A DNA stretch of 64,000 nucleotides from Pseudomonadota bacterium. Lineage in GTDB: Bacteria; Pseudomonadota; Alphaproteobacteria; CACIAM-22H2. Below, piece by piece: positions 29,420 to 64,000 of this stretch (its first letter is position 1; the number at the start of each line of letters is the position of its first letter). Under the pieces are notes generated by a model that saw only the letters and a program-made list of their open reading frames with translations, did no database searches and was not told the origin of the DNA. The position numbers and the translations under genes are program-made. The stretch spans positions 3,028 through 67,027 of the forward strand of contig JBQTIU010000024.1 of assembly GCA_052387815.1 (NCBI GenBank), given 5' to 3'.

Positions 29420-30253
29420 TCACCGCGGGGCCGCGGTGGCTCGCCAGCGCCGCTCGCTCAAGCGCTTGCGCCACCTGCCCCAGGCGTTGCGCCCCCGCAC
29501 CGCCCCGCTCGGCGGCCCGGCCGGCTCGAGGACGAACATCCAGTCGCTGTTCATCCAATGCGGCAGGCGGTCGGCGATGCGCGCGTTCCAGGCGACGACA
29601 AGCGGCGAGCGCAGCAGCAGGTCGAGCCCCCAGCCGCACAGGAAGGTCGAGGGCGCGTACCGGCGCACCTTGAGGCCGCTCGCCGCGAACAGGCGCACGA
29701 GCCCGCCCATGGAAAAGAAATTGACGTGCGGGCTGGTCGCAAGGGTCATCTCGGGCTCGTTCGCCTGCGGCTCGTCCAAGAGCGCGCGTTTGAGCGCGCG
29801 CAGAGGGCGCGCGAGCCCCGAGAAATGGAGGCCCAATTCGATCAGCGCCATGATCTCGAACGGGCCGTAGCCGTTCGGAGTGGTCAAGACCACGCGCCCG
29901 CTCTGGGCCAAGTTACGGCGCAGGGACACAAGGAAACCGAGCGGGTCCTCGACATGCTCCAGGACTTCGGCGGCGACGATCAGGTCGAAGACGCCGCCCC
30001 CCGGCAGCGCCGCGAAATCGTCAAAGGCGAGGTTGGGAAGCGGCGCCTGCGCGCGCGCCCAGGCGATCGAGCGCGCGTCGGTATCGACGCCGAGCACGGA
30101 GATGCCGGGGAAGGCCTTGGCGAGCGGCCGGGTGAGCTGCGCGCCGGTGCCGCAGCCGACGTCGAGGATGCGGCGGGGCGTGAGCTCGCGCACCGCGCGG
30201 GCGACGAACTCGAGCCGCTTGGCGTGCCCGTAGGCGTTCTCAGGCAGCGACAA
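29420..30253 (-). CDS. class I SAM-dependent methyltransferase
   Basis: ILDVGCGTGAQL motif I and VVLTTPN post-II region. Confidence 0.7.
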   Translation of the reverse strand: MSLPENAYGHAKRLEFVARAVRELTPRRILDVGCGTGAQLTRPLAKAFPGISVLGVDTDARSIAWARAQAPLPNLAFDDFAALPGGGVFDLIVAAEVLEHVEDPLGFLVSLRRNLAQSGRVVLTTPNGYGPFEIMALIELGLHFSGLARPLRALKRALLDEPQANEPEMTLATSPHVNFFSMGGLVRLFAASGLKVRRYAPSTFLCGWGLDLLLRSPLVVAWNARIADRLPHWMNSDWMFVLEPAGPPSGAVRGRNAWGRWRKRLSERRWRATAAPR

Positions 30254-32160: not shown

Positions 32161-32212
32161 CGTGGCGGGTTTCCATCTCGCGCAGGCGGGTTGAAAACCC
32201 ACCCCTACCTGG
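32161..32212. repeat. single degenerate copy of the REP-like element
   Basis: GGCGGGTTGAAAACCCACCCCTACC resembles the 3' part of the 16981-17215 units (GGCGGGTCATAAACCCGCCCCTACGG). It is also intergenic in the operon. Confidence 0.35.
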
Positions 32213-33008
32213 TCGCATGGATGGCGATGAACGAGCCGAGCGCCTCGGGGATAAGGCGGCCGAGCCAGCCGAGGTGCTGGCGATCGTAAGGGGTGACGAT
32301 CGGCCACGCCTCCATATCGGCAAAGGCGCCGAACAAGGCGCGGATCTCGGAGAGCGTATAGGCCTTGGTGCCGGGGCTCTCGAAGTGGCTGGCGATGACC
32401 TCGGCAAGGTTGCGGAAGGGGCGGCCGGCGCAGAGAGCGTGTTTCAACCATTCCTTCAAGAACGCGGCCGACCAGCGCTTGTAGAACATGCCGCGGAACT
32501 CGCCGCCCGGCTTGAGCACGCGATGGATTTGGGCGACGACCCGGTCCGGGTGCGGGGCGTGGTGGATCACGCCCCACGACCACACGAGATCGAAGAACTG
32601 GTCCGCGAAGGGCAGGCCTTCGGCGTCCACCCGCTGGAGCTCGGAGGCGAGGCCGTGGAGCGCAAGGCGCCGGCGCGTCGCCTCGACGGCCGCCTCGGTC
32701 AGGTCGACGCCCCAGCACCGGGCGCCGGCCCGCGCCCATTGCAGGTGGTCGGTGCCGGCCCCGACCCCGATCTCGAGCACCCGCTTGCCGCGATAGCGGG
32801 TGAACTGGGCGACCGCGTGGATGAAGGGCTCGTTGGCGTAGCGGCGCTCCTCGACCCGCTCGCACCAGGCGAGGCTGCCGGGCTCGATGCCGCCGGTCAC
32901 CAGGGGGCCGGTCCCGCACGGCTCCTTCTCCCAGAAGGCGCGGACTTGCTCGTTGAGGGTGTCGGCCATGATCGCCCGCGTCCAGGCCCTTACAACCTCA
33001 CCGGCCAT
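32205..33008 (-). CDS. class I SAM-dependent methyltransferase
   Basis: VLEIGVGAGTDHL motif I and a VLKPGG motif. There is an alternative start at 32969. Confidence 0.7.
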   Translation of the reverse strand: MAGEVVRAWTRAIMADTLNEQVRAFWEKEPCGTGPLVTGGIEPGSLAWCERVEERRYANEPFIHAVAQFTRYRGKRVLEIGVGAGTDHLQWARAGARCWGVDLTEAAVEATRRRLALHGLASELQRVDAEGLPFADQFFDLVWSWGVIHHAPHPDRVVAQIHRVLKPGGEFRGMFYKRWSAAFLKEWLKHALCAGRPFRNLAEVIASHFESPGTKAYTLSEIRALFGAFADMEAWPIVTPYDRQHLGWLGRLIPEALGSFIAIHATR

Positions 33009-33336
33009 AAACGAGGCGGCCGTAATGCCGGGCCGTATAGGTCAGGGTGCCGACTTCATCCTTGTAGCGCTCGAACCGCGACCGCCGGCAGGGAAACACG
33101 TCGGCCGCAATCCCGAGCCCGCGCGTGGCCTCGAACCCGGCGATGACGTTGCACTGCTTAGCGGGAGTGTCGTCGGGGACGACGACCAGAAGGTCGTAGT
33201 CGCTATCCCCGCGGGAATCCTCCCGCGCTCTCAAGCCGAACAAATAGACCGCTTCGGCCCGGAATGCCGGCACGATCCGCGCCAACAATCGCTCCAAGTC
33301 TGCGTCGACGTGAGCGGGCGGCGAGTCGATCATCAT
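32998..33336 (-). CDS. nucleotidyltransferase-domain protein (MNT-like, no HepT partner)
   Basis: GLRAREDSRGDSDYDLLVVV nucleotidyltransferase motif. It stands alone, with no adjacent HEPN gene. Confidence 0.5.
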   Translation of the reverse strand: MMIDSPPAHVDADLERLLARIVPAFRAEAVYLFGLRAREDSRGDSDYDLLVVVPDDTPAKQCNVIAGFEATRGLGIAADVFPCRRSRFERYKDEVGTLTYTARHYGRLVYGR

Positions 33337-45049: not shown

Positions 45050-46087
45050 CTAGGCGCGACCGAGAATCCGCCGCAAGCCTCCATAGACGGCATAAGGGAC
45101 CTTCTGCCAGGTGCGGTTGAGCCAGCGCTCGATGGGCGGGCGGGAGAGCGCACCTTCGATCGCCCGGATGTCCGCCTCGGGCGTCAGTCGGGCCTCCTCC
45201 ATGAGGCCGATGGCGAACGAATTGAAGCCGTAGACGAGCGCGATCGCGGCGAGGCGCTGGCGCGTCTCGGCCGACAAGTCCGTCCGCTCGGGATCGATGA
45301 CGAAGATGGCGTCGCCGGCGTGGATCAGGCGCCGGTCCGCCATGGCGGACAGCCTCGTGGGCGCGCGCGTATAGGCCTGATGGCCGAGCTCGAGGTCGAT
45401 GAGGCGCATCCCGTGGTCGCGGAGATAGACGTGCTGGTCGCCGAGCAGCGGGTGCTCCCGGTAGTAGGGGACGGCGACGAACTCGGTATACACGAACAGG
45501 ATGCGGCCGCGCTCGAGCAGGCCCTCGGCGCCTTTGAGGACCCTGAGTTCCGCCCCCTCGGTGTCGATTTTCAGGAAATCCACGGTCGCCTCGGGGTCGA
45601 GCACCCGGTCCAGCCGCCGGCACCGCATCGGCAAGGTGCGGTTGACCTTTCCGTGCACCTCGAGGAACGACTTGCCGGACCGGCGGTCCTTGCGTGGATA
45701 GGTCTGAAAGATGCGCACGCCGATCTCCGGCTGGGTCTCGCCCATCATGGTGCAGGCGCCGGGGCCCGCGGTGACGTAGAAGGGGCGCTCCTCCTCGCGA
45801 TCCCAGGCCGCGCAGTCGAAGTAGCGCAGCGAGCGGAAGGCCGGCATCCTCATGCCCGCCTTCATGGCATCGGTGTCGCCAGCCACCAGCTTGCGGTACT
45901 CCTCAGGGTTCGGTTCGAAGCCGATCAAGTCCGCGCGGCGGGTATAGGAGGCGGGGAGGAAGAACATGCCGTTGCGGGCGCCGACATCGACGACGGTCGG
46001 CGCGATTTTGGCCTCCTCCAGCGGCGCGAACACGATGTCGCCGACCGTCCGTCCGGTGGCCGTGCGGTAATCGAGGCTGTTCAGCAT
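45050..46087 (-). CDS. FkbM-family methyltransferase
   Basis: VDVGARNGMFF...IGFEPNP motif. The start is ATG 46087, preceded by GGGAGG; the alternative is GTG 46171. Confidence 0.65.
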   Translation of the reverse strand: MLNSLDYRTATGRTVGDIVFAPLEEAKIAPTVVDVGARNGMFFLPASYTRRADLIGFEPNPEEYRKLVAGDTDAMKAGMRMPAFRSLRYFDCAAWDREEERPFYVTAGPGACTMMGETQPEIGVRIFQTYPRKDRRSGKSFLEVHGKVNRTLPMRCRRLDRVLDPEATVDFLKIDTEGAELRVLKGAEGLLERGRILFVYTEFVAVPYYREHPLLGDQHVYLRDHGMRLIDLELGHQAYTRAPTRLSAMADRRLIHAGDAIFVIDPERTDLSAETRQRLAAIALVYGFNSFAIGLMEEARLTPEADIRAIEGALSRPPIERWLNRTWQKVPYAVYGGLRRILGRA

Positions 46088-46121
46088 GCGGGCAAACCTC
46101 CCAAGATCGTTGCCCTTAAGC

Positions 46122-47099
46122 TCAGGTCGCCTTGAGGCGCAAAGTTGGCTGCGCCTTGACGGAGGTGGCACCGAGCGCCCGCAGAACGTCGTTGCCGTCG
46201 AGCGCGAATTCGTCGGGGTTCGGCGGGATGGCAGCCTCGGTCGGCGCGCGCTCGCGCACCACCACGGTGGCCGGAAGGGCGGCGCGCCAAATCGCCAACT
46301 GTAGCTGGTGGCTCAGTCGGTTGGTGCTGCGCGAATCGTCGAGCACCACGAGCCGCAAGGTGGCGGCGACGTCGTCGAGGATCGGGGTCCAGTCGTCGAT
46401 GAGCAGGCCGTTCACGGAAAACAGGGAGGCCCGCATCCCCTTCTCCGCCATCTGCCGGGCGAGCCGGCGGCCTTGCGGGAAGGCGAGATTGAAGCAGACG
46501 ATGGTGGCGTCGGGCCCGCTCGCATAGCGGAACAGGGCGCCGTCGCCGAAGCACTCGACCGGTCCCTCGACGGCCTCGATCTCGTGGCGCAACAGCCGCT
46601 GGCTCACGGCGATGATCCGGAAGCCGGGGGCGACGAGATGCCGGCCGAAGATGGCGTCGGCGTCGTGACGGTTGCTCACCGTATAGGCGGGGATGCGGGC
46701 CATCGAACAGAAATCCCCGAGATTGTTGAGGCGCGATTGCGGCCCCTCGAAGCCGCTGTCGACGACGGCGGCGACGATGGAAAAGGACGCCCGCGGGGGA
46801 TAGAGCCGCACCATGTTGTAGGTGTTGACCAGATGGTCCGTCGACAGCAGGAGGAAATCCTGCTGCTTCATGAAAAAGGCCGAATCGACCCCTTCCAGCA
46901 TCAACCCGAAGCCCATGCCGACCAGCGCGTTCTCGCAGTTGGGCGTGTTGATGACCTTGAGCCCGTCACGGCTCTCCAGCCCCGCGGTCAGCCCAGCCAG
47001 CCGGCTGCCGGCGGCGATGTTCTGGCCGTAGAGTACGAAGGGCGCGCGGCCGGCCAGGAGCTTGCGGACCAGCGCGTTGAGGTAGCCGACGTAAGTCAT
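46122..47099 (-). CDS. TPP-enzyme E1 beta-subunit-like (transketolase C-terminal-like) protein
   Basis: MTYVGYLNALVRKLL...FVLYGQNIAAG pattern of 2-oxoacid dehydrogenase E1-beta and split transketolases. ATGA overlap with the alpha-like gene. Confidence 0.7.
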   Translation of the reverse strand: MTYVGYLNALVRKLLAGRAPFVLYGQNIAAGSRLAGLTAGLESRDGLKVINTPNCENALVGMGFGLMLEGVDSAFFMKQQDFLLLSTDHLVNTYNMVRLYPPRASFSIVAAVVDSGFEGPQSRLNNLGDFCSMARIPAYTVSNRHDADAIFGRHLVAPGFRIIAVSQRLLRHEIEAVEGPVECFGDGALFRYASGPDATIVCFNLAFPQGRRLARQMAEKGMRASLFSVNGLLIDDWTPILDDVAATLRLVVLDDSRSTNRLSHQLQLAIWRAALPATVVVRERAPTEAAIPPNPDEFALDGNDVLRALGATSVKAQPTLRLKAT

Positions 47100-50652: not shown

Positions 50653-51417
50653 TCAGCGAATGCGTCGCACAAAACCACCCCGCCAATAAGTCACCCACCG
50701 GTCGACCTGACCCTCGTTAAACGCAAACGGCGGCTCTACGATCGCGAAGTCAGGGTTTAGCGCCACGAATGCCTCCGCCGCCGCTTTCGGATGGTTCCAA
50801 CTCCAATCAGGTGCGGTTCGCGGGCCGCCCGCGACCAACTCTTTGATCCCGTCGGCAGCAATAATGTACGACCCAACGGAGACCAGGGAGGCATAAGCTT
50901 CGAGTTCGGCCAACACGTGATCCTTGGTGTGATTGCTGTCGAGGATGACCAGCACTTTTTCTCCGGGGGCAACCAATCGGCAGACTCGATCGACTGTGGC
51001 TGGAGCAATCGAACTACCCTCAACCAATGTGATGAACGGGAACAACTCATGCGCTTGGATCGCGACGAGATTGTGCGGCCGAATCTCGATGTCGATGCCG
51101 ATGACGCGACCACGTCCAATCAGCCGACAAAGGCTGGCATAGAACACCAGCGAGCCTCCGTGCGCGATTCCCGTCTCGACGATCACGTCGGGCTTGATCG
51201 AATAGACCACCTCCTGCATCCTGACCAGGTCCTCGGCAAGCTGAATGATCGGACGGCCGAGCCACGTGAAGCTATACACGTGCTTAACGTCCCAGCCACA
51301 ACGCAGCCACGCTTCTGACGCCAAAGCGAAGGCCTCCGGCGAGCTCATCGGATAGACGACTTCAGTACCGTCGCTTTCGACGATCACCACTGACCGCTCC
51401 GAGTCGATTTTGATCAC
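50653..51417 (-). CDS. CmcI/cephalosporin-hydroxylase-family class I methyltransferase (sugar O-methyltransferase-like)
   Basis: VIVETGIAHGGSLVFYA motif as in CmcI/rhamnosyl O-MT family. GC content is clearly lower than in neighbouring genes. Confidence 0.7.
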   Translation of the reverse strand: MIKIDSERSVVIVESDGTEVVYPMSSPEAFALASEAWLRCGWDVKHVYSFTWLGRPIIQLAEDLVRMQEVVYSIKPDVIVETGIAHGGSLVFYASLCRLIGRGRVIGIDIEIRPHNLVAIQAHELFPFITLVEGSSIAPATVDRVCRLVAPGEKVLVILDSNHTKDHVLAELEAYASLVSVGSYIIAADGIKELVAGGPRTAPDWSWNHPKAAAEAFVALNPDFAIVEPPFAFNEGQVDRWVTYWRGGFVRRIR

Positions 51418-51562: not shown

Positions 51563-53470
51563 CTAGGCCTCGAATACCAAATCTTCGTACCGGCGCTCGT
51601 CCCGCGGCGGCTGGCCGGGCAGGAGGCGCGGGATTTCCTTGCCCTTAAAGTCGCGGGTCCGCAAGTCGTCGACCGCCAACCCGAACGCCTCGAGCCGTTC
51701 GCGCCAATAGTTCGAGCCGTCGAGCTTCGCCTGCAGCCGGTCGATGACGCCGGGCTCGATCGTGCCGTCGAGCTTGTGCTGCAGATAGCCGATGAAATAC
51801 AAGGCCAGGCCGTGCTCGGGCGAGATGACGTCGCGAAGCGTGTTCAGGTTCTTGAGCTGCTGCTCGATCTTCGCCGGCCGGTCCTCGGAGAACAGGCGGT
51901 GAAAATTGAGGTGATAATTCATGTAGAACCAGATGTCGGTGATTTGCTGCGGCGTCGGCACCGCATCCATGGGGATGGCGCAAAACGCCTCTTCGAACCC
52001 GACGGTCGCCAGGCGCAGGCCGAGGTCGATCTCGTCCTGTTTGCCGTAGCCCCCGGCCATGAATCGCACTTCCGAGCTGCCGACGTTCTGGATGAGCCCC
52101 TGCTCGACCATCGAGTCGTAGATGGGCGTGTTGGGAAGTGGCTGGAGCGGCGTGATCCCGCACCAGTCGAGGTCCATGTGGCGCGCGACGTTGATGGTGT
52201 CGTTGATCATCGCCAGGGTCTCGCCCGGGAACCCGATCATCAGGAACACGCGGGAGTGGATCTGCTCGTAGCGCCGCAGGACCTCGGCCGCGGCGAGGAA
52301 GGTGCGCACCGTGCCCGGCTTCTTGATCTGCCGCAGGACCACCGGGTTTCCGGATTCCATCCCGATGTTGAGCGCGATGCAGCCGCTTTCGGCCATGGCG
52401 TGCACGATCTCATCGGTGCACGAGGCGGCGATCAGCCCGTTGGTCGCATCCCAGGTCATGCCCAGCCGGCGTTTGACCATGCCGTTGAACAGGGCGATCG
52501 CGCGGGCGTGGTCCTTCAACAGATCGTCGTCGAGCCAGACGAAATGGCCGATGCCGTGCTCGTTTTTCAACAACTCGAGCTCGTCGAGCACCGAATCGAC
52601 CGAACGCTGCCGGACCGCCTTGCCGTTGAAATTCCGTACGCTGCAGAAAGTGCACTGGGCACGGCAGCCGCGGTTCGAGAGCACGGTGGCAAAACGCGTG
52701 CCGGGCGGCTTGAAGCCGTGGAAATTGCCGATGACGCCGACCTTAGAGAGATCGCGGACGTTGAACAGATCGTAGGCCGGGATGACGTCAATTTCCCCGG
52801 CCGTGGGCTGGCACTGGGCAAGGAACCGGAACCGTTCCCGCCCATCGTCGAGGATCACCTGCCCGAGACCGGTCGGTCCGAGTTCGCCGCCGACCGCCCG
52901 GCAGAACAGCTTGATGGCGACATCGCCCTCCCGCAGGAAGGCGATCCGTGCCGCCTTGATGTCGTCGAGCACGCGCTCGACGTCGTTGTTCACATGCACC
53001 CCGCCGATGGCCACCGGGATGCCCGAAAGCGCCGCATGTTCGCACACGCGCTTCAACGAGGCGTGCGTCATGGTGAACATGCACGTCACGCCGATCAAAT
53101 CCGGCTTGAAGCCCGCGATGGCGTCGTCCAGGGCCGCCTGCCAAGTGCGGTCGAAATCGAACTCCCGCTTCGAGGCGGCGGCGCGCGCCGCCTTCAGGAC
53201 CTCGTCGTTCAGGTTGACGATCTTGGGCTCGACGCCGATCGCGCGCAGGTGCTGCGCCAGCACGCCCAAGCCATAGGGCGGATAGTTGGGATAGCGCTTG
53301 CGCCGTGCCGTCGCAAAGCGGAACAGGCCGGACTCGCCGTCGGGCGGGTTGACCAACAGGACGCGCTCGATCTTGCCGCGCGGGAAATGGCGAGCGAAAA
53401 AGGCCTCCACCGCCGCCGCGTCGTGCGGCACCGACAAGGGATCGACGGCAACCGATGCGCACCCGCTCAT
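51563..53470 (-). CDS. B12-binding-domain radical SAM protein (class B radical SAM methyltransferase-like)
   Basis: N-terminal cobalamin-binding Rossmann region, then a CxxxCxxC cluster motif (RGCRAQCTFCSV). 635 aa from ATG 53470. Confidence 0.8.
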   Translation of the reverse strand: MSGCASVAVDPLSVPHDAAAVEAFFARHFPRGKIERVLLVNPPDGESGLFRFATARRKRYPNYPPYGLGVLAQHLRAIGVEPKIVNLNDEVLKAARAAASKREFDFDRTWQAALDDAIAGFKPDLIGVTCMFTMTHASLKRVCEHAALSGIPVAIGGVHVNNDVERVLDDIKAARIAFLREGDVAIKLFCRAVGGELGPTGLGQVILDDGRERFRFLAQCQPTAGEIDVIPAYDLFNVRDLSKVGVIGNFHGFKPPGTRFATVLSNRGCRAQCTFCSVRNFNGKAVRQRSVDSVLDELELLKNEHGIGHFVWLDDDLLKDHARAIALFNGMVKRRLGMTWDATNGLIAASCTDEIVHAMAESGCIALNIGMESGNPVVLRQIKKPGTVRTFLAAAEVLRRYEQIHSRVFLMIGFPGETLAMINDTINVARHMDLDWCGITPLQPLPNTPIYDSMVEQGLIQNVGSSEVRFMAGGYGKQDEIDLGLRLATVGFEEAFCAIPMDAVPTPQQITDIWFYMNYHLNFHRLFSEDRPAKIEQQLKNLNTLRDVISPEHGLALYFIGYLQHKLDGTIEPGVIDRLQAKLDGSNYWRERLEAFGLAVDDLRTRDFKGKEIPRLLPGQPPRDERRYEDLVFEA

Positions 53471-53706
53471 GATCCGGAACCCCGAGTCATTCGCTGTTGT
53501 CGTCCTTGGGCCGACCCGCCCGTTTGCCGCGCCTTCGGCCGTCACCCCGATCTCTTGGGAATAGTACGGCGAACCGCCCGGCGGAACAAGCGATTACCCG
53601 AATGGAGCGTCCACATATCCAAGAACATACCTAGAAATGGCTATATTCGAACACCGACTTGCCCGCTGTTGCCAATACCTTTCCGGGCCACCCGGCGAGG
53701 GCCCGC

Positions 53707-54930
53707 TCAAATCTCCCGCACGTCGGGGACCGGCACCAGGAAGCGCCCGCCTCGGCGCCGGTACTCCGCCTGCTGGGCGACGATCTCCTCGGCGAAGTTC
53801 CAGGCCAGGATCAAGAGGTAATCCGGCCGGTCGGCGAGCAATCGATCGGGCGCCACGACCTCGATATGGGTGCCGGGGGTCAACCGGCCCTGCTTCAACG
53901 GGTTGCGGTCGGCGATATAGTCGATGTCCGCCGGCCCCAGCTCGAGAAAGCTTAGCAGGGTGTTGCCCTTGGCCGGCGCCCCGTAGCCCGCGACCCGGCC
54001 GCCGGCCCGGCGGATGCGTTCGAGCCGCGCCCTCAGGTTCGATTTGTTGGCAAGGATGCGCTGGGCGAAGCCCCGGTAGGTCCCGATGTCGCGCAGGCCG
54101 CGGCGCTCTTCCATGGCGAGCAGCGCGGCCACCCCCGGATCAGGCCTCGCCCGTCCCTGGCGCCGTATCCATGCCCTGAGCTGGCCGTGATGGATCGCCA
54201 AGCGCTCGACGGCGACGATCTCGAAGCCGTGGAGCTGGAACAAACGCTGCATGGGCCCGAGCGACCAATACGACACGTGCTCGTGGTAAATGGTGTCGAA
54301 CGCCAACATGTCGAGGAGGTCCGTGAGGTAATGCGCCTCGAGCACCACCACGCCGTCGGGAGCGAGCGCGAGATCGATGCCGTCGAGGAACCCGTGCAGG
54401 TCGGGGATGTGGGGAAAGGTGTTGGTGAACGCGAACACCCGGACCGGGCCGTGGTCGTCGCGGATGCGGCGCGCCGTCTCGGGGTTGAAGAACGCGGTCA
54501 TGACCTCGATGCCGTTCAAGCGGGCGAACGGCGCGAGATTGGCGGCCGGATCCACCCCCAGCGTGCGCGCCGGGCACGCCCGGCGAAAGCCGTCGAGCAG
54601 CGTGCCGTCGTTGCAGCCGATATCGACGACCAAATCGCCGGGCCCAAGCGGGATTCGCTCGGCGGCCGCGCCGGCGAGAGAGCGCAGATGCTGGGTGAGC
54701 GTGTCGGATGCCGACGACACGTAGAGGTAGTCCTCGAACATGGCCGCGGGCGGGACACGCTCGGTCAACTGGACGTGGCCGCAATCATGGCAGTACCCGA
54801 TCCTGAGCGGGAATTTCGGCTCCGCGGCGGCGGCCAGCTCGGCGGCGGTCACGAACTTGTTCGCCAACGCCATCGGCCCCAAGTCGAGGAACGTCTCGAC
54901 GGTGGCGGAACGGCATACGATGCAGCTCAT
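53707..54930 (-). CDS. NDP-hexose C-methyltransferase (TylC3/EvaC-like, zinc-ribbon N-terminus)
   Basis: CxxC...CxxC N-terminus (MSCIVCRS...CHDCGH), SAM motif VVDIGCNDGTLL, and a C-terminal C-methyltransferase domain. Confidence 0.75.
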   Translation of the reverse strand: MSCIVCRSATVETFLDLGPMALANKFVTAAELAAAAEPKFPLRIGYCHDCGHVQLTERVPPAAMFEDYLYVSSASDTLTQHLRSLAGAAAERIPLGPGDLVVDIGCNDGTLLDGFRRACPARTLGVDPAANLAPFARLNGIEVMTAFFNPETARRIRDDHGPVRVFAFTNTFPHIPDLHGFLDGIDLALAPDGVVVLEAHYLTDLLDMLAFDTIYHEHVSYWSLGPMQRLFQLHGFEIVAVERLAIHHGQLRAWIRRQGRARPDPGVAALLAMEERRGLRDIGTYRGFAQRILANKSNLRARLERIRRAGGRVAGYGAPAKGNTLLSFLELGPADIDYIADRNPLKQGRLTPGTHIEVVAPDRLLADRPDYLLILAWNFAEEIVAQQAEYRRRGGRFLVPVPDVREI

Positions 54931-56401: not shown

Positions 56402-57411
56402 GCTTGCTCTCGTTGGCGGGGAATGGCGCCGGCGCGCATTTGCTGGCGCCAGTAGTCGAGCGTGTCGGAGAGAATCTGCTCGAACGGGATGTTCGGCACC
56501 CAGCCGGTCGCCTGCCGGAACTTGGCGGTGTCGGCGATCAGCCGCGGCACGTTGGTCGGCCGTACGTAGCGCGGGTCGGTCTCGTAGGCGATGCCCTTGA
56601 CGCTCGACATGGCGATCAGCCGCTCGAGGGCCTGGCGAAAGGTATGGATGCTGGCCTCGTCCTCCGAGCCGATCAGATAGAGCTCGCCCGGCGCGCATTT
56701 CTCGACCGCCAGCCAATAGGCTTCGACGATGTCGCGGACGTGCGTGAAATTGCGCCGGTCGTCGAGATGGCCGACCTTGAGCATCTTGTCCTGCCGGCCG
56801 GCCTCGACGCGGGCGATCTGGTAGGCGTACCAGGGAATGCCGAACGCCTTGTCGCGGCGCGGCCCCTCGTGGTTGAAGGCGCGCGTGCGGATGACGTTGA
56901 GGCCGTAGGAGCGGAAGTAGACGTAGCCGATCAGGTCCTGCGCGATCTTGGTCACGGCGTAGGGGTTGACGGGGCGCAGCACGGTGGACTCGAGGATCGG
57001 GATCTCGTGCTCCAGGATGTCGCCGTATTCCTCGCCCGAGCCGGGGATCAGCAGGCGCGCCTTCGAGCCCGCCTGGCGCAACGCCTCGAGGAGGTTGACC
57101 GTGCCGTTGTAGTTGACCGCCATGTAGCGGTGCGGGTTGTTCCACGACGGGCTGACGAAGCTCTCGGCGGCGAAATGCAGCACCATTTCGGGTGCCGCCT
57201 CGTCGAGCGCGGCGCGGGTGGCCACCGGGTCGGTCAAGTCGCAATCGACCCAGCGGATCCGATCCTCGATGTGGCGCACGTTGTCCAGGCGCGACAGATG
57301 CCAGCGCTTGGTGCCCCAAAGTTCCGCCGCGCCGCCGGCGGACAACAGATAGTCGGCGGCGTGCGAGCCGACGAAGCCGGTGATGCCGGTGATCAGGACG
57401 CGTCGAGCCAC
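56398..57411 (-). CDS. GDP-mannose / GDP-heptose 4,6-dehydratase family
   Basis: RVLITGITGFVGSHAADYLL and YAVTK motifs, resembling GMD/DmhA. No in-frame ATG; the predicted GTG start at 57411 has GGAG 7 nt upstream. Confidence 0.75.
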   Translation of the reverse strand: MARRVLITGITGFVGSHAADYLLSAGGAAELWGTKRWHLSRLDNVRHIEDRIRWVDCDLTDPVATRAALDEAAPEMVLHFAAESFVSPSWNNPHRYMAVNYNGTVNLLEALRQAGSKARLLIPGSGEEYGDILEHEIPILESTVLRPVNPYAVTKIAQDLIGYVYFRSYGLNVIRTRAFNHEGPRRDKAFGIPWYAYQIARVEAGRQDKMLKVGHLDDRRNFTHVRDIVEAYWLAVEKCAPGELYLIGSEDEASIHTFRQALERLIAMSSVKGIAYETDPRYVRPTNVPRLIADTAKFRQATGWVPNIPFEQILSDTLDYWRQQMRAGAIPRQREQA

Positions 57412-58646
57412 GGGCGCTCCTGCGGGTGCGCGGGGTCGGCGATCAGGCGAGCGACGATGTCGAGGAGACCCGTTCCCTCCTCGACCATGGCGAAGGGAGC
57501 GCCGGCGCGCCGGGCGGCCTCGCCGTCGCGTGGGTCGTCGCCCACGAACAGGGTGCGCGAGAGGTCGAGCGCGAAGTCGCGTTGCGCCTGGAACAGCATG
57601 CCGGGCGCGGGCTTGCGGCACCAGCAGCCCTCGTCCCAGTCGTGCGGGCAGTGGTAGACGGCATCGATGCGGCCGCCGGCCGCCGCGGCTTCCCTTAGCA
57701 TCCGCTCGTGGATCGCCTCGAGGTCGGCAAGGGTCATGAAAGAGCGCGCGATCCCGGACTGGTTGGTCACCACGATCACGCGATAACCGGACTCGGCGAG
57801 CAGCCGCAGCGCGTCGAGCGCGCCGGGCAGCCAGCGCCAATCCCGCCACGAGGTCACGTACCGGCCGCCGCGCGCCTTGCGATTGAGGACACCGTCGCGA
57901 TCGACCAGGATCGTCTTGGGGCGAGCGAGGAAGCGCCCGGTCTCGTCCAGCCGTTCGATCGTCCCGACGCTGTAATAGCGATGGTCGGTCTCGAAGGCGC
58001 GGAGCTGCCGGGCCGCGACCAGCCGCGGATAGACCGCTGCCTCGAAGGAGGGATTGAGATCCTCGGGCAGGAGATCGAGCACCGCGCGCTCGGCGATCAG
58101 GAAGCCGATATCGACTCCCGCGAGCCCGGTCGCGGCCCGCTGTTTGTCGTAGAGGTCGACGAACCCGTCGGCGCCGACGCTGAGGTTGCCGCGGGTGTAG
58201 CCGTCGCGGTTGCGGTAGACCGCGACCTGCGCCATCGCGCCGCCGGCGCGATAGGCGTCCCACATGTCGGCGAACGGCATCGGCCAGTAATTATCGCAAT
58301 ACGCCAGGAGGAACCGCGGCTCGATCATCGGGGCCGCGAGCTTGAGGCGCCGGCCGGTGTCGTCCTCGACGCCGCTGAGCGCGTACTCGATCTCGACCCC
58401 GAGGGGTCGTCCGTCCCCGAAATAGCCGCTGATCGCCTCGGGCAGATAGCCGAGGAGCAAGAGGAAGCGCTCGAAACCCTGGTCGCGCAGCATTTCGATC
58501 AGGTACTCGAGGAAGGGCCGGCCGTGGAATTCGATCATCGGCTTGGGGCGCGTCTCGGTGAGCGGGCGCAGGCGCATCCCCCGCCCGCCGGCGAGGATGA
58601 CCGCCTGGCGCGGCCGTTCGAACGCGACGCCGGTGCTGTTGCTCAC
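57393..58646 (-). CDS. bifunctional D-glycero-alpha-D-manno-heptose-1-phosphate guanylyltransferase (HddC-like) and D,D-heptose 1,7-bisphosphate phosphatase (GmhB-like)
   Basis: N-terminal AVILAGGRGMRLRPLTETRPKPM nucleotidyltransferase domain. C-terminal HAD domain (ILVDRDGVLN...CWCRKP..GDDPRD). Confidence 0.8.
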   Translation of the reverse strand: MSNSTGVAFERPRQAVILAGGRGMRLRPLTETRPKPMIEFHGRPFLEYLIEMLRDQGFERFLLLLGYLPEAISGYFGDGRPLGVEIEYALSGVEDDTGRRLKLAAPMIEPRFLLAYCDNYWPMPFADMWDAYRAGGAMAQVAVYRNRDGYTRGNLSVGADGFVDLYDKQRAATGLAGVDIGFLIAERAVLDLLPEDLNPSFEAAVYPRLVAARQLRAFETDHRYYSVGTIERLDETGRFLARPKTILVDRDGVLNRKARGGRYVTSWRDWRWLPGALDALRLLAESGYRVIVVTNQSGIARSFMTLADLEAIHERMLREAAAAGGRIDAVYHCPHDWDEGCWCRKPAPGMLFQAQRDFALDLSRTLFVGDDPRDGEAARRAGAPFAMVEEGTGLLDIVARLIADPAHPQERPWLDAS

Positions 58647-59242
58647 CGACCGTCAACGCCCTTGGTTCGTCGCTGGCCAAGGTCGAGCACCGCATGGCAG
58701 AGGGCAAGGTGGGACACTTCGACGAAGCCGTATTCCGCCGCGCCGACATGGAAGTTGAGGTCGCCCATGCGGCGCAACGGATTGTCCGCCGAAAAACCGC
58801 TGAGCGTGGCGACGAAGCAGTCCTTGGCCCGCGCCGCCTCGACCGCGCGCAGGATATTGGCCGAGCGCCCCGAGCTCGAAATGGCGATCAGCATGTCGCC
58901 CGGGCGGGCATGAAATTCGATCTGCTTGGCGAACACGCTCTCGTAGCCGAGATCGTTGCCAAGACAGGTCAGCGCCGCGCCGTCGTTGAAGGCAAGCGCG
59001 CGCAGGCCGCCGTTCTTCGAGTAGTCGATGGCGAGATGGCTGGCGATGCCGGCGCTGCCGCCGTTGCCTACGAACATCAGCTTGTTGCCCCGGCCATGCG
59101 CCGTCCGCGCCGCGCCGGCGAAATGGGAAAAAGCCACCTCGATGCCGATCGGCCGGCCCGCGCCGTCGCTCGCCGCGGTCTCCTCGAGGCAGCGATGCAG
59201 GGTCGCGAAATAGTCGGTGATGCGATCGAGCGGGATATCCAT
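58643..59242 (-). CDS. gmhA: SIS-domain phosphoheptose isomerase
   Basis: FVGNGGSAGIASH and SSSGRS motifs. The start is ATG 59242; an upstream in-frame TTG at 59281 is the alternative. Confidence 0.8.
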   Translation of the reverse strand: MDIPLDRITDYFATLHRCLEETAASDGAGRPIGIEVAFSHFAGAARTAHGRGNKLMFVGNGGSAGIASHLAIDYSKNGGLRALAFNDGAALTCLGNDLGYESVFAKQIEFHARPGDMLIAISSSGRSANILRAVEAARAKDCFVATLSGFSADNPLRRMGDLNFHVGAAEYGFVEVSHLALCHAVLDLGQRRTKGVDGR

Positions 59243-59327
59243 GTCGCGGTCCAAGGGTTCGAGGGGGGTCCTGTCAGGCAAAGCGCTGCGTGACCCGGCC
59301 GAGATATTGCGCGCAGTCGAAGATGTC
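59112..59327. repeat. direct repeat copy 1 (216 bp, about 97% identical to 60341-60556): gmhA 5' end plus GT2 3' end junction
   Basis: Base-by-base comparison shows about 6 mismatches over 216 bp. Homology continues at protein level into the GT2-like remnant. Confidence 0.7.
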
Positions 59328-59474
59328 GTTCAGTCCAAGCCTGTGGGCCTCGACGAACAGCCGGCCGGCACGCTCGCGCAAGAGCGCGAGCTTGCCCGCG
59401 AGGCGCTCGATCGCGTCGGCGTCGAGCTCGCGGTTGATGCGGCTCGCCTGCTTGAGATAGGTGCGAGCGTGGCT
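59274..59474 (-). pseudogene. remnant 3' end of a GT2 glycosyltransferase gene (C-terminal 66 codons only)
   Basis: It encodes ...INRELDADAIERLAGKLALLRERAGRLFVEAHRLGLNDIFDCAQYLGRVTQRFA. This aligns with the C-terminus of the GT2 at 60503..61717 (...INRALDGAPRRLVDALHFRFRRPSDRLWVEAQKLGLQDIFDCAQYLGRVTQRFA). Confidence 0.45.
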
Positions 59475-59506
59475 CATTCCGGTCTTCGCTGTCGTCCGCC
59501 GCCGGC

Positions 59507-60277
59507 TCAGGCGGCCGGGTCGTCCTCGATATAGGCGATGAAGGACTGGCCCCACCACCCCACCGACAGGTGGGGCGCGAAGCGAAAGCGGCTGCGGCGG
59601 CAAAATTCGCGGAAGGCCCGCGCGACGCCCTTGGCCGGCGAGCCCTTGTAGCCGGCGAACAGGTCGTCCATGTAAAGCACCGAGCCCTCCTGCAAGAGCG
59701 GCTCGATGAACTTGAACACCGGCACGGCCGACTCGTAGAGATCGCAATCGATAGTTGCGAGCGCGACCTTGTTCCCCTGGTCCAGGAAGCGGCGCTGCAA
59801 TTCGGGGGTCAGGCTATCGGCATAGAAGCCCGCGATCGGGTGGACGCGTTCCGACCAGATGCCGTGCGCCTGCACCATCCTCATGAAGTCCTCGACCGAG
59901 GTGGCCAGCGCGCCGCGTCGCCAAATTTCGTTGACCGGATTCGAGGTCGGCTGCGGCAGCCCTTCGAAGCTGTCGAAGGCGAAGAACTTCATCTCGGAAA
60001 AGTTGTAGCGGCGCGCCTCGGTCAAGGCCATGCGGAATGTCCGGCAGCGGTGGCAGCCATATTCGTGATAATCGCCAGTGATCCGATTCTCGCGGAGGAA
60101 GTCGAAGACTCGGCGGAAGAACAGGTACTTCTCGGTTTGCCGACTCATATGGGTATCAGCGATCTCCTGCTCGCGCCCCCAGTCCCGGAGCTCCGGCCCC
60201 GTCGCGAGCCGCACCCAGGGCTCGCCGTCCTGGGCCTCGATCCGCACCGGGGGCAAGTCGCGCCTCGGCTCGTTCAT
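59507..60277 (-). CDS. TylF/MycF-family (macrocin O-methyltransferase-like) sugar O-methyltransferase
   Basis: TylF-family pattern (YHEYGCHRCRTF...ATIDCDLYES...LYMDD) and 256 aa. Confidence 0.8.
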   Translation of the reverse strand: MNEPRRDLPPVRIEAQDGEPWVRLATGPELRDWGREQEIADTHMSRQTEKYLFFRRVFDFLRENRITGDYHEYGCHRCRTFRMALTEARRYNFSEMKFFAFDSFEGLPQPTSNPVNEIWRRGALATSVEDFMRMVQAHGIWSERVHPIAGFYADSLTPELQRRFLDQGNKVALATIDCDLYESAVPVFKFIEPLLQEGSVLYMDDLFAGYKGSPAKGVARAFREFCRRSRFRFAPHLSVGWWGQSFIAYIEDDPAA

Positions 60278-60471
60278 GGTATCCGTCTCCGCTTGGGTTC
60301 AGCTCTTGAGTGCCTGGGCCACTTGCATGGCCTGGTCGCCGCGCCGGCGAAACGGGAAAAAGCCACCTCGATGCCGATCGGCCGGCCCGCGCTGTCGCTC
60401 GCCGCGGTCTCCTCGAGGCAGCGATGGAGGATCGCGAAATAGTCGGTGATGCGATCGAGCGGGATGTCCAT
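60274..60471 (-). pseudogene. duplicated 5' fragment of gmhA (first about 50 codons) read through to a stop overlapping the TylF-family MT start
   Basis: It encodes MDIPLDRITDYFAILHRCLEETAASDSAGRPIGIEVAFSRFAGAA, then non-homologous sequence. It terminates at 60274, overlapping the ATG at 60277. Confidence 0.4.
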
Positions 60472-60556
60472 GTCGCGGTCCAAGGGTTCGAGGGGGGTCC
60501 TGTCAGGCAAAGCGCTGCGTGACCCGGCCGAGATATTGCGCGCAGTCGAAGATGTC
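60341..60556. repeat. direct repeat copy 2 (216 bp)
   Basis: See copy 1 at 59112..59327. Confidence 0.7.
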
Positions 60557-61717
60557 CTGCAAACCCAGCTTTTGGGCCTCCACCCACAGCCTGTCGGACG
60601 GACGCCGAAAGCGAAAGTGCAGCGCGTCGACGAGGCGCCGCGGCGCCCCGTCAAGCGCCCGGTTGATCGCCCGCGCCGCCGATCGCAGGGCCCCACGCGC
60701 CGGCGTCCCGGCCGCGACCCCCGCCGCCACCGCAGCCTGGATTTCGGCCGGCGCCTCGCCGAGCGCCGCGTGCCAGGCCGCCATTTCGGCGGCAACGTCG
60801 CGGCCCATCCCCTGCATCTCGCGGATGCCGCGCCAGCACGCGAGGAAATAATTGGCAAGGTCGAGGCGGTACGACCCCAGCCGTTCCGGCATGGCCGCCT
60901 GCAGGCGCAGAATCGTGTCCGCGCCGTCGGAGGGGAAAACGCTCATCAGCTTGATCGGCGCGCGCTCGATCCGCATGCCCGCCGTCATGCGAGTAAAGGT
61001 CCGGGGATCGGCGACATGGCCGCCCGAGGAATCGGGCGGGGCGCCGAGGACGGTGAGCGGCAAGTCGAGGCGCAGATGCTTGTGGCTGAAGGCGAGCGCG
61101 GCGGCGGCGGCCGAGGTCATGGGATCGATCGGCAGGAACAGCGCGCCGTCCAGGCGCTCGCGGATGCGCGCGATGAGCTCTCGCCGGTAGACGGCAAAGG
61201 GAAACAACGGCAGCTTGCGTTTCACGGCACCGGCCTTGCCGGTCCCCGAGGCGAACATCTCGGCCAGGAGCTCGGAAGCCTCGTAGACGAAACGCTGGCC
61301 GGAAAACGCGTTGTAACCGAAACGGATCGCGCCGCCGTTCCGCTGGCCGGGGCCTTCCATGTACCCCGCATGCGTCCACGAGACCGTGTCGATGTCGGCA
61401 TGGTCGCTAAGCTCGCGGTCGAGGATGGACAGCAGGTTCGGCGCGATCGCGTCATCTTCGCACAACAACACGTGGGCCTCGCCCCCGGCATGGGCGAACG
61501 CGAAGTTCCAGTGGTCGATGAGCGTCAGGTATTCGGACGGTCGCACGTAGCGGACCCGCGGGTCGGCGAAGCCGCGCACGAGGGCCTCGCAGCCCTCGTC
61601 GCTGTTGTCGGAGACCACCACCTCGAAGTCCTGGAAGCTCTGGGCGAGCGCGGAGCGAATCGCGCACGGCAACAGGCGCGGTCGCGTGGTCGTGATGACG
61701 ATCGAGAACTTAGCCAT
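60503..61717 (-). CDS. GT2-family glycosyltransferase
   Basis: MAKFSIVITTTRPRLLPCAIRSALAQSFQDFEVVVSDNSDEGC N-terminus with a DxD region, as in GT-A/GT2. Confidence 0.8.
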   Translation of the reverse strand: MAKFSIVITTTRPRLLPCAIRSALAQSFQDFEVVVSDNSDEGCEALVRGFADPRVRYVRPSEYLTLIDHWNFAFAHAGGEAHVLLCEDDAIAPNLLSILDRELSDHADIDTVSWTHAGYMEGPGQRNGGAIRFGYNAFSGQRFVYEASELLAEMFASGTGKAGAVKRKLPLFPFAVYRRELIARIRERLDGALFLPIDPMTSAAAAALAFSHKHLRLDLPLTVLGAPPDSSGGHVADPRTFTRMTAGMRIERAPIKLMSVFPSDGADTILRLQAAMPERLGSYRLDLANYFLACWRGIREMQGMGRDVAAEMAAWHAALGEAPAEIQAAVAAGVAAGTPARGALRSAARAINRALDGAPRRLVDALHFRFRRPSDRLWVEAQKLGLQDIFDCAQYLGRVTQRFA

Positions 61718-61753
61718 GGAGTGCTCCTCGGTCCGCGGTAGCGGAGGGTCGCC

Positions 61754-63097
61754 TCATCGGATGACAGGCTCGCCGGTCGTCGCGACCGCGCGGGCCTCGG
61801 CCCTGGCGGGGTCTGCGAGCCGCAGCCAGGCTGGCGAGATGCGCGATTCGGCGAGGGCGTACCAGAGGTGGTCGTGCGGCCTGACAATCTGCTCGATGGG
61901 CACGCCGTAGGGAATATCGGTCGCGATGCCGTCGAGGAAATCGCGGACCGCCGCCTCGATCTCGGCAGCGGCGTTCGACCGTACCGCGTATCCGTCGTGG
62001 CGGTACGACTGCGAGAGGTGCCTGAACGCGCGACGCGGGTCCACGGCCTGGCCCGCGGGGTCCTCCCAAAACTTGAAGAAGACGGTCGCGCGATAGCGCG
62101 TCTGGAAATAGGGGAAATTGTTGACGATCAGGGTCGGGATGCCGTTCACCCCGGGAAGCCAGGAGCCGCCGCCCGACTCGCCGACGAACAGATCCGCCTC
62201 CGTAGCAGCGAACAGCGAGAACAGAAATGGATCCTGTCCGAGGATGCGCGCATCGGCGAGCCAGCCCTCCGTCTCGCGCGCAAACTCGTCGGGAAGGTAT
62301 CGGTCCCCGATCATCAGGCATTGGTAGCCCGCATGAATGAGCGAACGGATCGCCGGCATCCACTCGATCACCACGGAACCCGACCGGCTGCCGGACTCCA
62401 ATTCCTGCTCCGATCCCTTCCATCGCAGATAAAGGCAGCAGAGCTTTCGCGCCTTGCGCTCCGACCGCGCGACCAGCCGGTCGAGCGCCACGCGGATCGG
62501 CTCGACGAGCGGCGCGGGGAGCCGTACCGGCGGGGCGGCCCGAGTACTGAGGAGGCGGAAATAGGCATGGACCGTATGCACCGAACGCGACTCCCGGGTC
62601 GGGTCGGCCTCGCCGTCGCCGCCGAAGCCGACGGACCGCAGCATCGCGAAGTGCAAATCCATCGCCGAGGCAAGGACGATCTTGTTCGGCCACAGCTTTC
62701 GTATCGCCGGAGCCAACAAGCCGCACAGCCATTCCTGAACGCGATATGGCACGCTCAGCGGCGGCCACCGGCCGCTGCGCCCAAGCTTGAAGCCGAAGGG
62801 CAGGAGATGGAGGCGCGGCACGGTCCACAACCTTGGCAGATACCAGTTCTGCACCTCCGGACTCGCGGCGAACAGGAGCGTGACCCGACGCCCCGGGTAC
62901 AGCCGCCGCAAGGCGTCAGGAAACACTATGAGATGCCCGAACCCGCCGCCTTCATTGATGACCACCACTTCCGCGCTCCGTATGTCGCGCCAGGCCCGGC
63001 ATACGCCGTACGCGACCCGCAGCAGGCTCACGGGAAGGACCAGCCACCGCGCCACCCCGTTCAGGCGCCAGCCGACAGCATGCAGAATCCGTCTCAT
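61754..63097 (-). CDS. hypothetical protein, possibly a GT-B (GT9 heptosyltransferase-like) glycosyltransferase
   Basis: 447 aa from ATG 63097. It has a weak GT9-like pattern (VVVINEGGGFGHLIVFPDALRRL ... FVGESGGGSWLPGVNGIPTLIV). The overlapping ORF 61710..62828 was rejected. Confidence 0.35.
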   Translation of the reverse strand: MRRILHAVGWRLNGVARWLVLPVSLLRVAYGVCRAWRDIRSAEVVVINEGGGFGHLIVFPDALRRLYPGRRVTLLFAASPEVQNWYLPRLWTVPRLHLLPFGFKLGRSGRWPPLSVPYRVQEWLCGLLAPAIRKLWPNKIVLASAMDLHFAMLRSVGFGGDGEADPTRESRSVHTVHAYFRLLSTRAAPPVRLPAPLVEPIRVALDRLVARSERKARKLCCLYLRWKGSEQELESGSRSGSVVIEWMPAIRSLIHAGYQCLMIGDRYLPDEFARETEGWLADARILGQDPFLFSLFAATEADLFVGESGGGSWLPGVNGIPTLIVNNFPYFQTRYRATVFFKFWEDPAGQAVDPRRAFRHLSQSYRHDGYAVRSNAAAEIEAAVRDFLDGIATDIPYGVPIEQIVRPHDHLWYALAESRISPAWLRLADPARAEARAVATTGEPVIR

Positions 63098-63099
63098 TG

Positions 63100-63249
63100 C
63101 TAGGTCGCGAACGGCCGGTAAATCGGGCCCCGCCGTCCTTCCTTCAGCAGCAGCATGGCGCCGTAGGCGAGCGGCAGCGCCAGGCGCCGGTAGCCGACAA
63201 GCCCCGCCATGCGGTCGAGGAAGCGCAGGAGCACGGGGTTCGACGCCAT
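63100..63249 (-). CDS. small ORF (49 aa) between the radical SAM gene and the GT9-like gene
   Basis: MASNPVLLRFLDRMAGLVGYRRLALPLAYGAMLLLKEGRRGPIYRPFAT. It has GAGGTG immediately upstream and its TAG stop is 2 nt before the next ATG. Whether it is really coding is uncertain. Confidence 0.2.
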   Translation of the reverse strand: MASNPVLLRFLDRMAGLVGYRRLALPLAYGAMLLLKEGRRGPIYRPFAT

Positions 63250-63338
63250 CACCTCGACCGAACCCTGGAACCGGTCGCGATGGAGCGGCTGGTCCGACAA
63301 ATACTTGTCGCAGAACCGGACGGTCTTGTCGGCTAAGG

Positions 63339-64000
63339 CTAGATTTCCCGCGGCGGGCGTTCCGCCGCATCGCCCCAGTGCTCGCCCGCCTTGTAGCAGC
63401 CCTGGCAGACCTTGGGGATGCGGCCGTCGAGATGGGCCTGGCGGAACGCCTCGTAGGCGGGGCCGAACCACGTTTTGGCGAAGCCGTCCGCGGCGCTGCC
63501 GATCTCCATCACGTCTGGGCTGCCGACATAGCAGCACGGCACGGTGCGCAGGTCCGACGACACGTAGGCCCGCTCGAACGGCCACGGGCACAGCGTGTTG
63601 AGTGACTCGATGCGGTACTTCTCGGTCACGTTCCAGAACCGGACCAGAAGGCCGAGCGCTGCCCCGCGGTCGACGAGCCTCAAGAGAGAATCCGGATCGA
63701 GCCGGTCGTCGACGGTGACCGCCTTGTTGCGCTCGCTCCAGCTCTCGACCCCAAAGTCGCTCAAGTTGAGCGAGAACACGAGCTGCGGGAAGCCGAGCTC
63801 CGCACCGAGGTCGACGAGGTTTTCGAGTTGCCGTACGTTGTCGTGCTGCACCACGACCCACATCTTGGTCCGCAGCCGGTCGACTCGGCGGGCGTAGTCG
63901 TTGACCGTCCGGCAGTTGGCAACGACGCGCCCGAACACCGAGCCGCGGCGGATCTTCTCGAAGGTTGCCTTGTCGGCGCCGTCGATCGAGATCTGCAGCT
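63339..64000 (-). CDS. radical SAM protein with C-terminal SPASM domain (5' end beyond the window)
   Basis: Cys-rich SPASM tail (CPWPF...VPCCYVGSPD...CQGCYKAGEHW). The ORF continues upstream to the window edge (...LQISIDGADKATFEKIRRGSVF). Confidence 0.55.
   Translation of the reverse strand, partial: LQISIDGADKATFEKIRRGSVFGRVVANCRTVNDYARRVDRLRTKMWVVVQHDNVRQLENLVDLGAELGFPQLVFSLNLSDFGVESWSERNKAVTVDDRLDPDSLLRLVDRGAALGLLVRFWNVTEKYRIESLNTLCPWPFERAYVSSDLRTVPCCYVGSPDVMEIGSAADGFAKTWFGPAYEAFRQAHLDGRIPKVCQGCYKAGEHWGDAAERPPREI

Follow-up and report, generated by a model that had tools for sequence, protein, structure and literature searches.

A TylF-family O-methyltransferase (OMT) gene lies between two direct repeats in a 64-kb stretch of DNA from a metagenome-assembled genome (MAG) of an alphaproteobacterium (GCA_052387815.1, contig JBQTIU010000024.1, positions 3,028 to 67,027); this whole stretch is called the window here, and positions are counted from its first letter. 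Each repeat carries the boundary between a gene for a family-2 glycosyltransferase (GT2) and gmhA, a gene for a sedoheptulose-7-phosphate isomerase-like protein, and the OMT gene is accompanied by stubs of four genes (Table 1). We think it probable that this structure is a scar of illegitimate and homologous recombination in a mosaic heptose surface-polysaccharide cluster, and that the scar holds a captured slice of DNA with an intact OMT gene.

Table 1. Genes, relics and repeat copies at the GT2/gmhA boundary, in the direction of transcription (aa, amino acids; ORF, open reading frame; L001, one of 28 loci with an OMT homologue).
Feature	Position	Strand	Evidence or content
GT2, intact family-2 glycosyltransferase, 404 aa, MGQ0663112.1	60503..61717	-	PF00535, 46.3 bits
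Repeat copy 2 (core)	60337..60556	-	Last 17 codons and stop of GT2, 31-nt spacer, codons 1-45 of the gmhA relic
gmhA relic, 65-aa ORF, hypothetical protein MGQ0663111.1 (ACT4P2_05905)	60274..60471	-	gmhA codons 1-45, then out of frame through the glf tail
glf relic, last 12 codons and stop of UDP-galactopyranose mutase, DQAMQVAQALKS	60299..60337	-	tblastn of L001 Glf residues 384-395
OMT, TylF/MycF/NovP family, intact, 256 aa, MGQ0663110.1	59507..60277	-	PF05711, 43.2 bits (cut-off 23); PF13578 Methyltransf_24, 27.6 (cut-off 26.3)
SIS_B relic, first 41 codons of a second-type SIS-domain isomerase gene	59355..59477	-	tblastn, phmmer
GT2-allele relic, last 26 codons and stop, VEAHRLGLNDIFDCAQYLGRVTQRFA	59274..59354	-	In-frame fusion to the SIS_B stub
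Repeat copy 1 (core)	59108..59327	-	GT2 tail, spacer, first 45 codons of intact gmhA
gmhA, SIS-domain sedoheptulose-7-phosphate isomerase-like, intact, 199 aa, MGQ0663108.1	58643..59242	-	PF13580 SIS_2, 48.8 bits (cut-off 27)
HddC-like nucleotidyltransferase fused to GmhB phosphatase	57393..58646	-	First gene of the conserved heptose-nucleotide module

Repeats and relics at the GT2/gmhA boundary

Ungapped comparison of the two repeat copies, which are spaced 1,229 bp apart, gives 215 identical positions in a core of 220 (97.7%, five mismatches). A preliminary description of this DNA, made without database searches, had placed repeats of 216 bp and about 97% identity at 59112-59327 and 60341-60556; these repeats are real, and the coordinates lie within 4 nt of the core measured here. 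A repeat search of 57000-62500 returns one repeat family (59108-59368 against 60337-60597), and elsewhere in the window the sole other repeat of at least 45 nt above ~75% identity is an unrelated 87-nt tandem repeat, so that the repeat at the GT2/gmhA boundary is far beyond what chance would produce. The core falls into perfect runs of 16, 39, 33, 3, 34 and 90 nt, the longest of which occupies 59238-59327 in copy 1 and 60467-60556 in copy 2. It consists of the GT2 tail with its TGA stop (54 nt, 59327-59274), identical between the copies at 54/54 positions, the spacer, identical at 31/31, and the beginning of gmhA (59242-59108), identical at 130 of 135; the preliminary description was right about this boundary, its estimates of ~19 GT2 and ~50 gmhA codons being slightly high. 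All five differences are thus in the gmhA part, where two are synonymous and three change an amino acid (T14I, G27S and H40R); the polarity of these three is mixed, the stub having the derived residue at two of them and the intact copy at one.

The insert between the repeats, ~59355-60336 (~0.98 kb), is identified by its matches and their order as a slice of a foreign glf-OMT-SIS_B-gmhB operon, cut in glf 12 codons before its end and in SIS_B 41 (41-42) codons after its start. The bare OMT cassette of the preliminary description is replaced by a slice that retains stubs of both former neighbours of the OMT gene, although the truncated gene pieces that it had reported on both sides of that gene are indeed present. 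Among the 28 loci with an OMT homologue (L001-L028), three (L007, L008 and L010) show the complete order glf-OMT-SIS_B-gmhB; they come from Rhodospirillaceae or alphaproteobacterial MAGs, and their OMTs are only 62-64% identical to that of the window. The GC content of the slice is only mildly low (0.62 vs 0.66-0.71) and is uninformative on its foreignness.

The downstream side of the insert is occupied by a 67-aa ORF (59274-59477) that is deposited as hypothetical protein MGQ0663109.1 (ACT4P2_05895). We read this ORF, from its database matches, as a chimera of the N-terminus of SIS_B (residues 1-41/42) and a GT2-like tail that is confined to the last 26 codons. By tblastn against the 28 loci only residues 1-42 match, in seven loci and with E values down to 5e-10; in L007, L008 and L010 the match begins ~20 nt past the stop of the OMT homologue, and the gmhB gene then follows. 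The SIS_B proteins have 194 aa and a SIS domain (Pfam SIS_2); the ORF follows their N-termini collinearly, beginning at Met1, as far as ...RERxGRLF, and breaks exactly before LGVGGSA. A phmmer search of 1.84 billion representative proteins returned ten non-self matches, nine of them limited to residues 1-42/43, and the seven that were inspected are N-termini of the same SIS_B family. The stop codon of the ORF is the one native to GT2, 31 nt ahead of gmhA. What had been described as a GT2 C-terminal remnant is therefore GT2-like over its last 26 codons and SIS_B before them. We rejected the candidate reading of the whole ORF as a diverged GT2 tail, since residues 1-42 match SIS_B N-termini at the syntenic position; a tblastn match to GT2 that reaches back to residue 21 is due to the C-terminal motif and to sequence rich in Ala, Arg and Leu.

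On the upstream side, the 65-aa gmhA relic starts at an ATG at 60471 and lacks the GNGGSA SIS motif; as had been noted, it reads through to a stop that overlaps the OMT start codon (TGA at 60276-60274, ATG at 60277-60275, together ATGA). The 60 nt upstream of the OMT gene also hold a relic that had been missed, the 3' end of glf, which lies in another frame than the gmhA stub and whose stop is 21 nt before the OMT ATG. Nine of its 12 residues are identical in the tblastn match, which at E=1.4 is weak alone, and its DNA is ~80% identical to that of L001 over 40 nt. In the relatives Glf terminates in ...TIDHAMKVAQALKA or ...LKS, and in 13 of the 28 loci the gene stops a short way upstream of the OMT homologue. 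The origins of all four stubs can be read from these matches, and both deposited ORFs are, on this reading of their sequences, recombination debris.

Both junctions of the insert adjoin the high-identity core of 220 bp. At junction A (~60337), codon 45 of gmhA passes into the glf tail with ~2 nt (CG) of microhomology; at junction B (~59355/59354), SIS_B ...GGCTGTTC passes into GT2 GT(C/G)GAGGCC..., and GGCTGT is present in both parents. Both junctions are judged to be illegitimate joins at the level of microhomology.

Just outside the core the identity between the copies drops in a single step. The relic GT2 at 59328-59354 differs from the resident GT2 at 60557-60583 at 8 of 27 positions (30%), against 5 of 220 inside the core (Fisher p=6.5e-6), and the relic encodes RLGLND, the GT2 family consensus, where the resident gene encodes KLGLQD. 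This divergence step, together with the RLGLND/KLGLQD difference, indicates that the relic derives from a different GT2 allele than the resident gene; two GT2 alleles, or two assembled strains, are apparently involved. Because the GT2-like codons outside the core come from a different allele, the repeats are not a simple 247-bp duplication made in situ. The boundary 59327/60556 is either an endpoint of homologous recombination or a strain switch by the assembler at the edge of the 90-nt block.

The O-methyltransferase and its genomic context

The assignment of the OMT to the TylF family, first made from the sequence alone, is confirmed by its PF05711 match, and the gene is intact. The protein aligns to the structures 5i10, 4cdz and 2wk1 of the Protein Data Bank (PDB) across D-x-D-L-Y-E-S and DD, with IDCDLYES and YMDDLF in the window OMT against LDGDLYES and IIDDYF in 5i10/4cdz. 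In a family alignment of 21 members it retains the shared residue at all 82 invariant columns, including the motif residues D177, D179, Y181, E182, S183, D204 and D205; we take D-x-D-L-Y-E-S and DD to be the metal-binding and catalytic acidic motifs, as in NovP/MycF. Homologues number more than 1,100, the nearest outside the source MAG being 72% identical, and this large subfamily is without any NCBIfam model. A second OMT of the same MAG, MGQ0663490.1, which is encoded on another contig (68,553 nt), has 82% identity to the window OMT across the full 256 residues and represents either a paralogue or a co-binned strain.

The OMT start is preceded by its own 21-nt spacer, which contains GGAG. 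No sigma-70-like promoter was found in 58400-62000, and the sole terminator-like site in this interval lies inside the GT2 gene (60879-60856), not in or beside the captured slice. The gene is probably co-transcribed within the long array of genes on the same strand, and translation through the scar probably keeps its original coupling. Given the intact gene, the same-strand array, the lack of a promoter-like or terminator-like site at the slice, and the short relic reading frames that remain open and stop at or beside the following start, we infer that the OMT is most likely expressed and O-methylates a sugar of the island glycan.

A strong link with glf is evident from the loci of the OMT subfamily: glf is directly upstream of the OMT homologue in 13/28 loci, and directly downstream of it in L009, L011, L016 and L017 (Microcoleus, Oscillatoriales and Verrucomicrobia-labelled records) and in L025 (Bacteroidales). 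This linkage suggests that glycans containing galactofuranose (Galf) may be the usual context of the subfamily. In the window, by contrast, the context of the OMT is a heptose cluster, and a tblastn search found no glf elsewhere in it. Heptose or Galf would be the candidate substrates here. A literature search for work linking TylF and galactofuranose returned no papers.

Origin and stability of the structure

From the anatomy of the locus we infer a history in which ~0.98 kb cut from a foreign or paralogous glf-OMT-SIS_B-gmhB operon would have been joined into the GT2/gmhA boundary of a cluster of GDP-heptose / 6-deoxyheptose type by two illegitimate joins: one from gmhA codon 45 to the glf tail (codon -12), the other from SIS_B codon 41 to GT2 codon -26, within GGCTGT. 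The slice would thereby have come to stand between two copies of the boundary segment. Because the relic GT2 is 30% diverged just 5' of the core and identical inside it, this history would also include at least one exchange by homologous recombination that ended at 59327/60556; this position would be the border at which a variable glycosyltransferase region meets the conserved module for the heptose precursor. Three routes could lead to this arrangement: sequential displacement of the type seen in homology-facilitated illegitimate recombination, in which one end is anchored by homology, the other is joined illegitimately and orphan stubs are left behind; integration, through one crossover, of a circular molecule with a donor copy of the boundary; or one template switch that made insert and duplication together, followed by replacement of the GT2 allele. 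Recombinational mosaicism at the GT2/gmhA junction, which the preliminary description had suggested, is supported. The scar is of an ordinary recombinational kind, made unusually legible by its stubs, and it calls for no new genetic device or mechanism; the repeats are a by-product of its formation, not a device.

Several findings weigh against this account. No close relative was retrieved, and accordingly no empty site and no donor locus came to light: identity to the closest homologue is 48% for GT2, 72% for gmhA and, outside the MAG, 72% for the OMT. A search of GTDB representatives with the OMT returned 25 loci with a best identity of 66%, among them neither the source MAG nor a close relative; an exact 29-nt piece of the repeat core had 0 matches in the JGI metagenomes; and a profile scan for GT2 relatives returned 15 loci of at most 47% identity, none with gmhA or an OMT gene after GT2 and none with an empty site. 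The glf relic comprises just 12 codons and its support is mainly positional. The onset of the divergence falls exactly on the edge of the perfect 90-nt block, and a strain-chimeric MAG assembly that switched within this block would mimic a recombination endpoint.

The last point leads to the question of whether the duplication or its joins are a product of assembling a metagenome with mixed strains and occur in no single genome. In favour of this, the contig belongs to a MAG, the second OMT, at 82% identity, hints at paralogy or a strain mixture in the bin, and at the edge of the 90-nt block a de Bruijn path could pass from one strain to another. Against it, five positions differ between the two copies, so the same reads were not used twice, and joins A and B share at most 6 nt, far below an assembler k-mer, which means that actual molecules must contain both joins; doubt can extend at most to the identity of the sequence upstream of copy 2 (it could come from a co-assembled strain), not to the duplication. 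We therefore regard an assembly artefact as highly improbable. Less remote, though still rather unlikely, is an origin in a single event, by template switching of the microhomology-mediated break-induced replication type or by a Campbell-type crossover with a circle: in the first case, repair or replication would have left the chromosome at gmhA codon 45, copied the 0.98 kb of glf-OMT-SIS_B and re-entered 247 bp upstream at GT2 codon -26, the GT2 divergence being later or an assembly chimera. The precise flanking of the insert by a target duplication speaks for this, as does the short microhomology at both joins (~2 nt at A, GGCTGT at B), and the 82%-identical OMT implies that such a template may exist in the same cell. 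A single event predicts uniform identity along the 247-bp duplication, whereas the mismatches observed are 8/27 outside the core and 5/220 inside it, and MGQ0663490.1, at only 82% protein identity, is not a recent template.

Two further candidates were rejected. A mobile element or cassette would be expected to bring recombination functions or defined ends; no transposase or integrase domain was found among ~45 ORFs scanned across the window, and no inverted repeats bounding the unit were found in the repeat search. Instead of the short, fixed-length target duplication of a mobile element, 220-247 bp of coding sequence are duplicated on either side, and the unit ends in truncated genes. Homeologous recombination between gmhA and SIS_B does not apply, since neither junction joins gmhA to SIS_B.

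The preliminary description had also proposed that a crossover between the repeats would delete the OMT gene, restore a GT2-gmhA junction and act as an on/off polymorphism. The first part is formally correct: such a crossover would remove exactly 1,229 bp and yield an intact GT2-spacer-gmhA arrangement. Direct repeats of this kind should be enough for a measurable rate of RecA-dependent deletion, and a perfect block of 90 nt is ample for RecA; a RecA-type deletion of 1,229 bp would thus be possible in principle, in one direction only. That the cassette serves as a recombinational on/off polymorphism, in a population with methylating and deleted cells or strains, is in our view unlikely, even with repeats of 220 bp that are 97.7% identical, contain the 90-nt block and stand 1.2 kb apart. 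The change runs from on to off only: the deletion loses the only OMT copy at the locus, and the on state could come back only by re-import. None of the collections searched yielded a deletion or empty-site variant, and no recombinase or inversion system was found in the window; the glf and SIS_B stubs point to accidental capture rather than a designed cassette, and the five substitutions between the copies imply that the structure has persisted without deletion or homogenisation. Very unlikely, too, is the idea that the 1,229-bp unit, made up of one boundary copy and the glf'-OMT-SIS_B' slice, is a recombinase-free module that can be excised and re-integrated. If it were true, the released circle would have 220 bp of homology to strains with a plain GT2/gmhA boundary, and O-methylation of the surface glycan could be lost steadily and regained by transfer, giving a polymorphism of antigen or phage receptor in the population.

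The surrounding island and related systems

The window from ~13.5 to 64 kb is one polysaccharide island, with Wzy-like and NeuB proteins, several glycosyltransferases and many methyltransferases, and all of its genes between 39 and 64 kb are on the minus strand. Upstream of GT2 are a TIGR04372-type glycosyltransferase gene and a SPASM radical-SAM gene. The former, a 538-aa ORF at 61754-63370, matches TIGR04372 weakly over its C-terminal half (40 bits against a cut-off of 45); the ~100 residues at its N-terminus are rich in Arg, Pro and Ala and probably untranslated, so that its true start is likely further downstream. The start of gmhA at 59242 agrees with the deposited 199-aa protein. This protein misses the curated equivalog cut-offs (TIGR00441, 89.7 bits vs 209; NF001628, 80.8 vs 265), and its name is based on its context (hddA, hddC-gmhB and a dehydratase-like ORF) and on the depositor names of its homologues, which at up to 72% identity are called D-sedoheptulose 7-phosphate isomerase. 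Downstream of hddC-gmhB lie a putative dehydratase-like ORF, a small 3,5-epimerase, a GHMP kinase and a C-methyltransferase, and further downstream a B12 radical-SAM enzyme and a CmcI-type O-methyltransferase.

The nearest other homologues of GT2 are only 40-48% identical to it, with a C-terminal LGLxDIFDCAxYLG motif in common. Relatives of GT2 at 36-48% identity (L029-L031, L033, L034, L039, L040 and L044) are found in a syntenic cluster with the order radical-SAM/SPASM, GT2, hddC-gmhB, dehydratase, 3,5-epimerase, GHMP kinase and C-methyltransferase, and none of these loci has gmhA between GT2 and hddC-gmhB. Because the relatives have GT2 directly before hddC-gmhB, the position of gmhA, and with it the GT2-gmhA boundary, is itself derived and lineage-specific, in a cluster that is modular and rearranged between lineages. 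One of the relatives, on an ENA contig (L033:1962-4888), encodes a GT2 of 478 aa with an internal tandem duplication of ~80 residues, and the adjacent hddC-gmhB gene (487 aa) yields overlapping duplicate matches; the DNA there is either genuinely prone to duplication or an artefact of the assembly.

The methyltransferases of the island comprise two of FkbM type, three of class I (one fused to a GT4), CmcI, a B12 radical-SAM enzyme, a sugar C-methyltransferase and TylF, and the methyltransferase-type genes are at 699-1997, 24098-26524, 29420-30277, 32205-33041, 45050-46171, 50653-51417, 51563-53545, 53707-54930 and 59507-60277. Their unusual number suggests a heavily methylated glycan. The tandem repeat mentioned above (16998-17207) consists of 2.4 copies of its 87-nt unit, 95% identical and rich in GC palindromes, between an aminotransferase gene and a large oxidoreductase gene.

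Together, these results provide a base-resolved example of a glycan-modifying enzyme that would have been captured into a polysaccharide cluster, in which four gene stubs fix both the type of the donor operon (glf-OMT-SIS-gmhB) and the boundary in the recipient. They correct two deposited hypothetical proteins, MGQ0663109.1 and MGQ0663111.1. Further, the tight and undescribed genomic link between a TylF subfamily and glf is a possible lead for the substrate of these enzymes, the window copy having lost its glf partner.

Sequential displacement by homology-facilitated illegitimate recombination, with orphaned 3' pieces, has been proposed for the T6SS (type VI secretion system) arrays of V. cholerae and for Rhs loci (PMC5361080). 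The locus described here resembles the systems to which this kind of recombination applies, namely transformation of Acinetobacter, S. pneumoniae and P. stutzeri, the T6SS effector-immunity arrays of V. cholerae and Rhs/CDI loci, in that new DNA stands beside a conserved anchor with truncated stubs, conserved gene ends are repeated, the joins are at microhomology and there is no dedicated recombinase. It differs from the T6SS and Rhs arrays in lying in a polysaccharide cluster and in being one unit, with the stubs of four genes around one intact passenger, and here the mechanism is deduced from the scar alone.

Mosaic O-antigen and capsule clusters with remnants and module swapping include the heptose-modification capsule loci of Campylobacter jejuni, the rfb clusters of Salmonella and E. 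coli, and pneumococcal cps. With these the window shares a conserved heptose module beside a variable region of glycosyltransferases and modification enzymes, gain or loss of a methyltransferase, and remnants at old junctions; unlike them it comes from an uncultured high-GC proteobacterium and has a duplicated junction and a passenger from a glf-linked operon. As in RecA-mediated deletion between direct repeats, repeats of a few hundred bp flank 1 kb, and precise deletion is expected to be possible. On/off switching of the pneumococcal capsule by duplication is reversible, the duplicated sequence there being the gene's own; a deletion at the present locus, in contrast, would remove unique DNA and could not revert. 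The OMT itself is like NovP (2wk1), 4cdz and 5i10 in having the family domain above threshold, D-x-D-L-Y-E-S and DD retained and the same size, while its subfamily, unlike the members represented by TylF, MycF and NovP, is typically adjacent to glf in polysaccharide clusters and not part of macrolide or aminocoumarin pathways.

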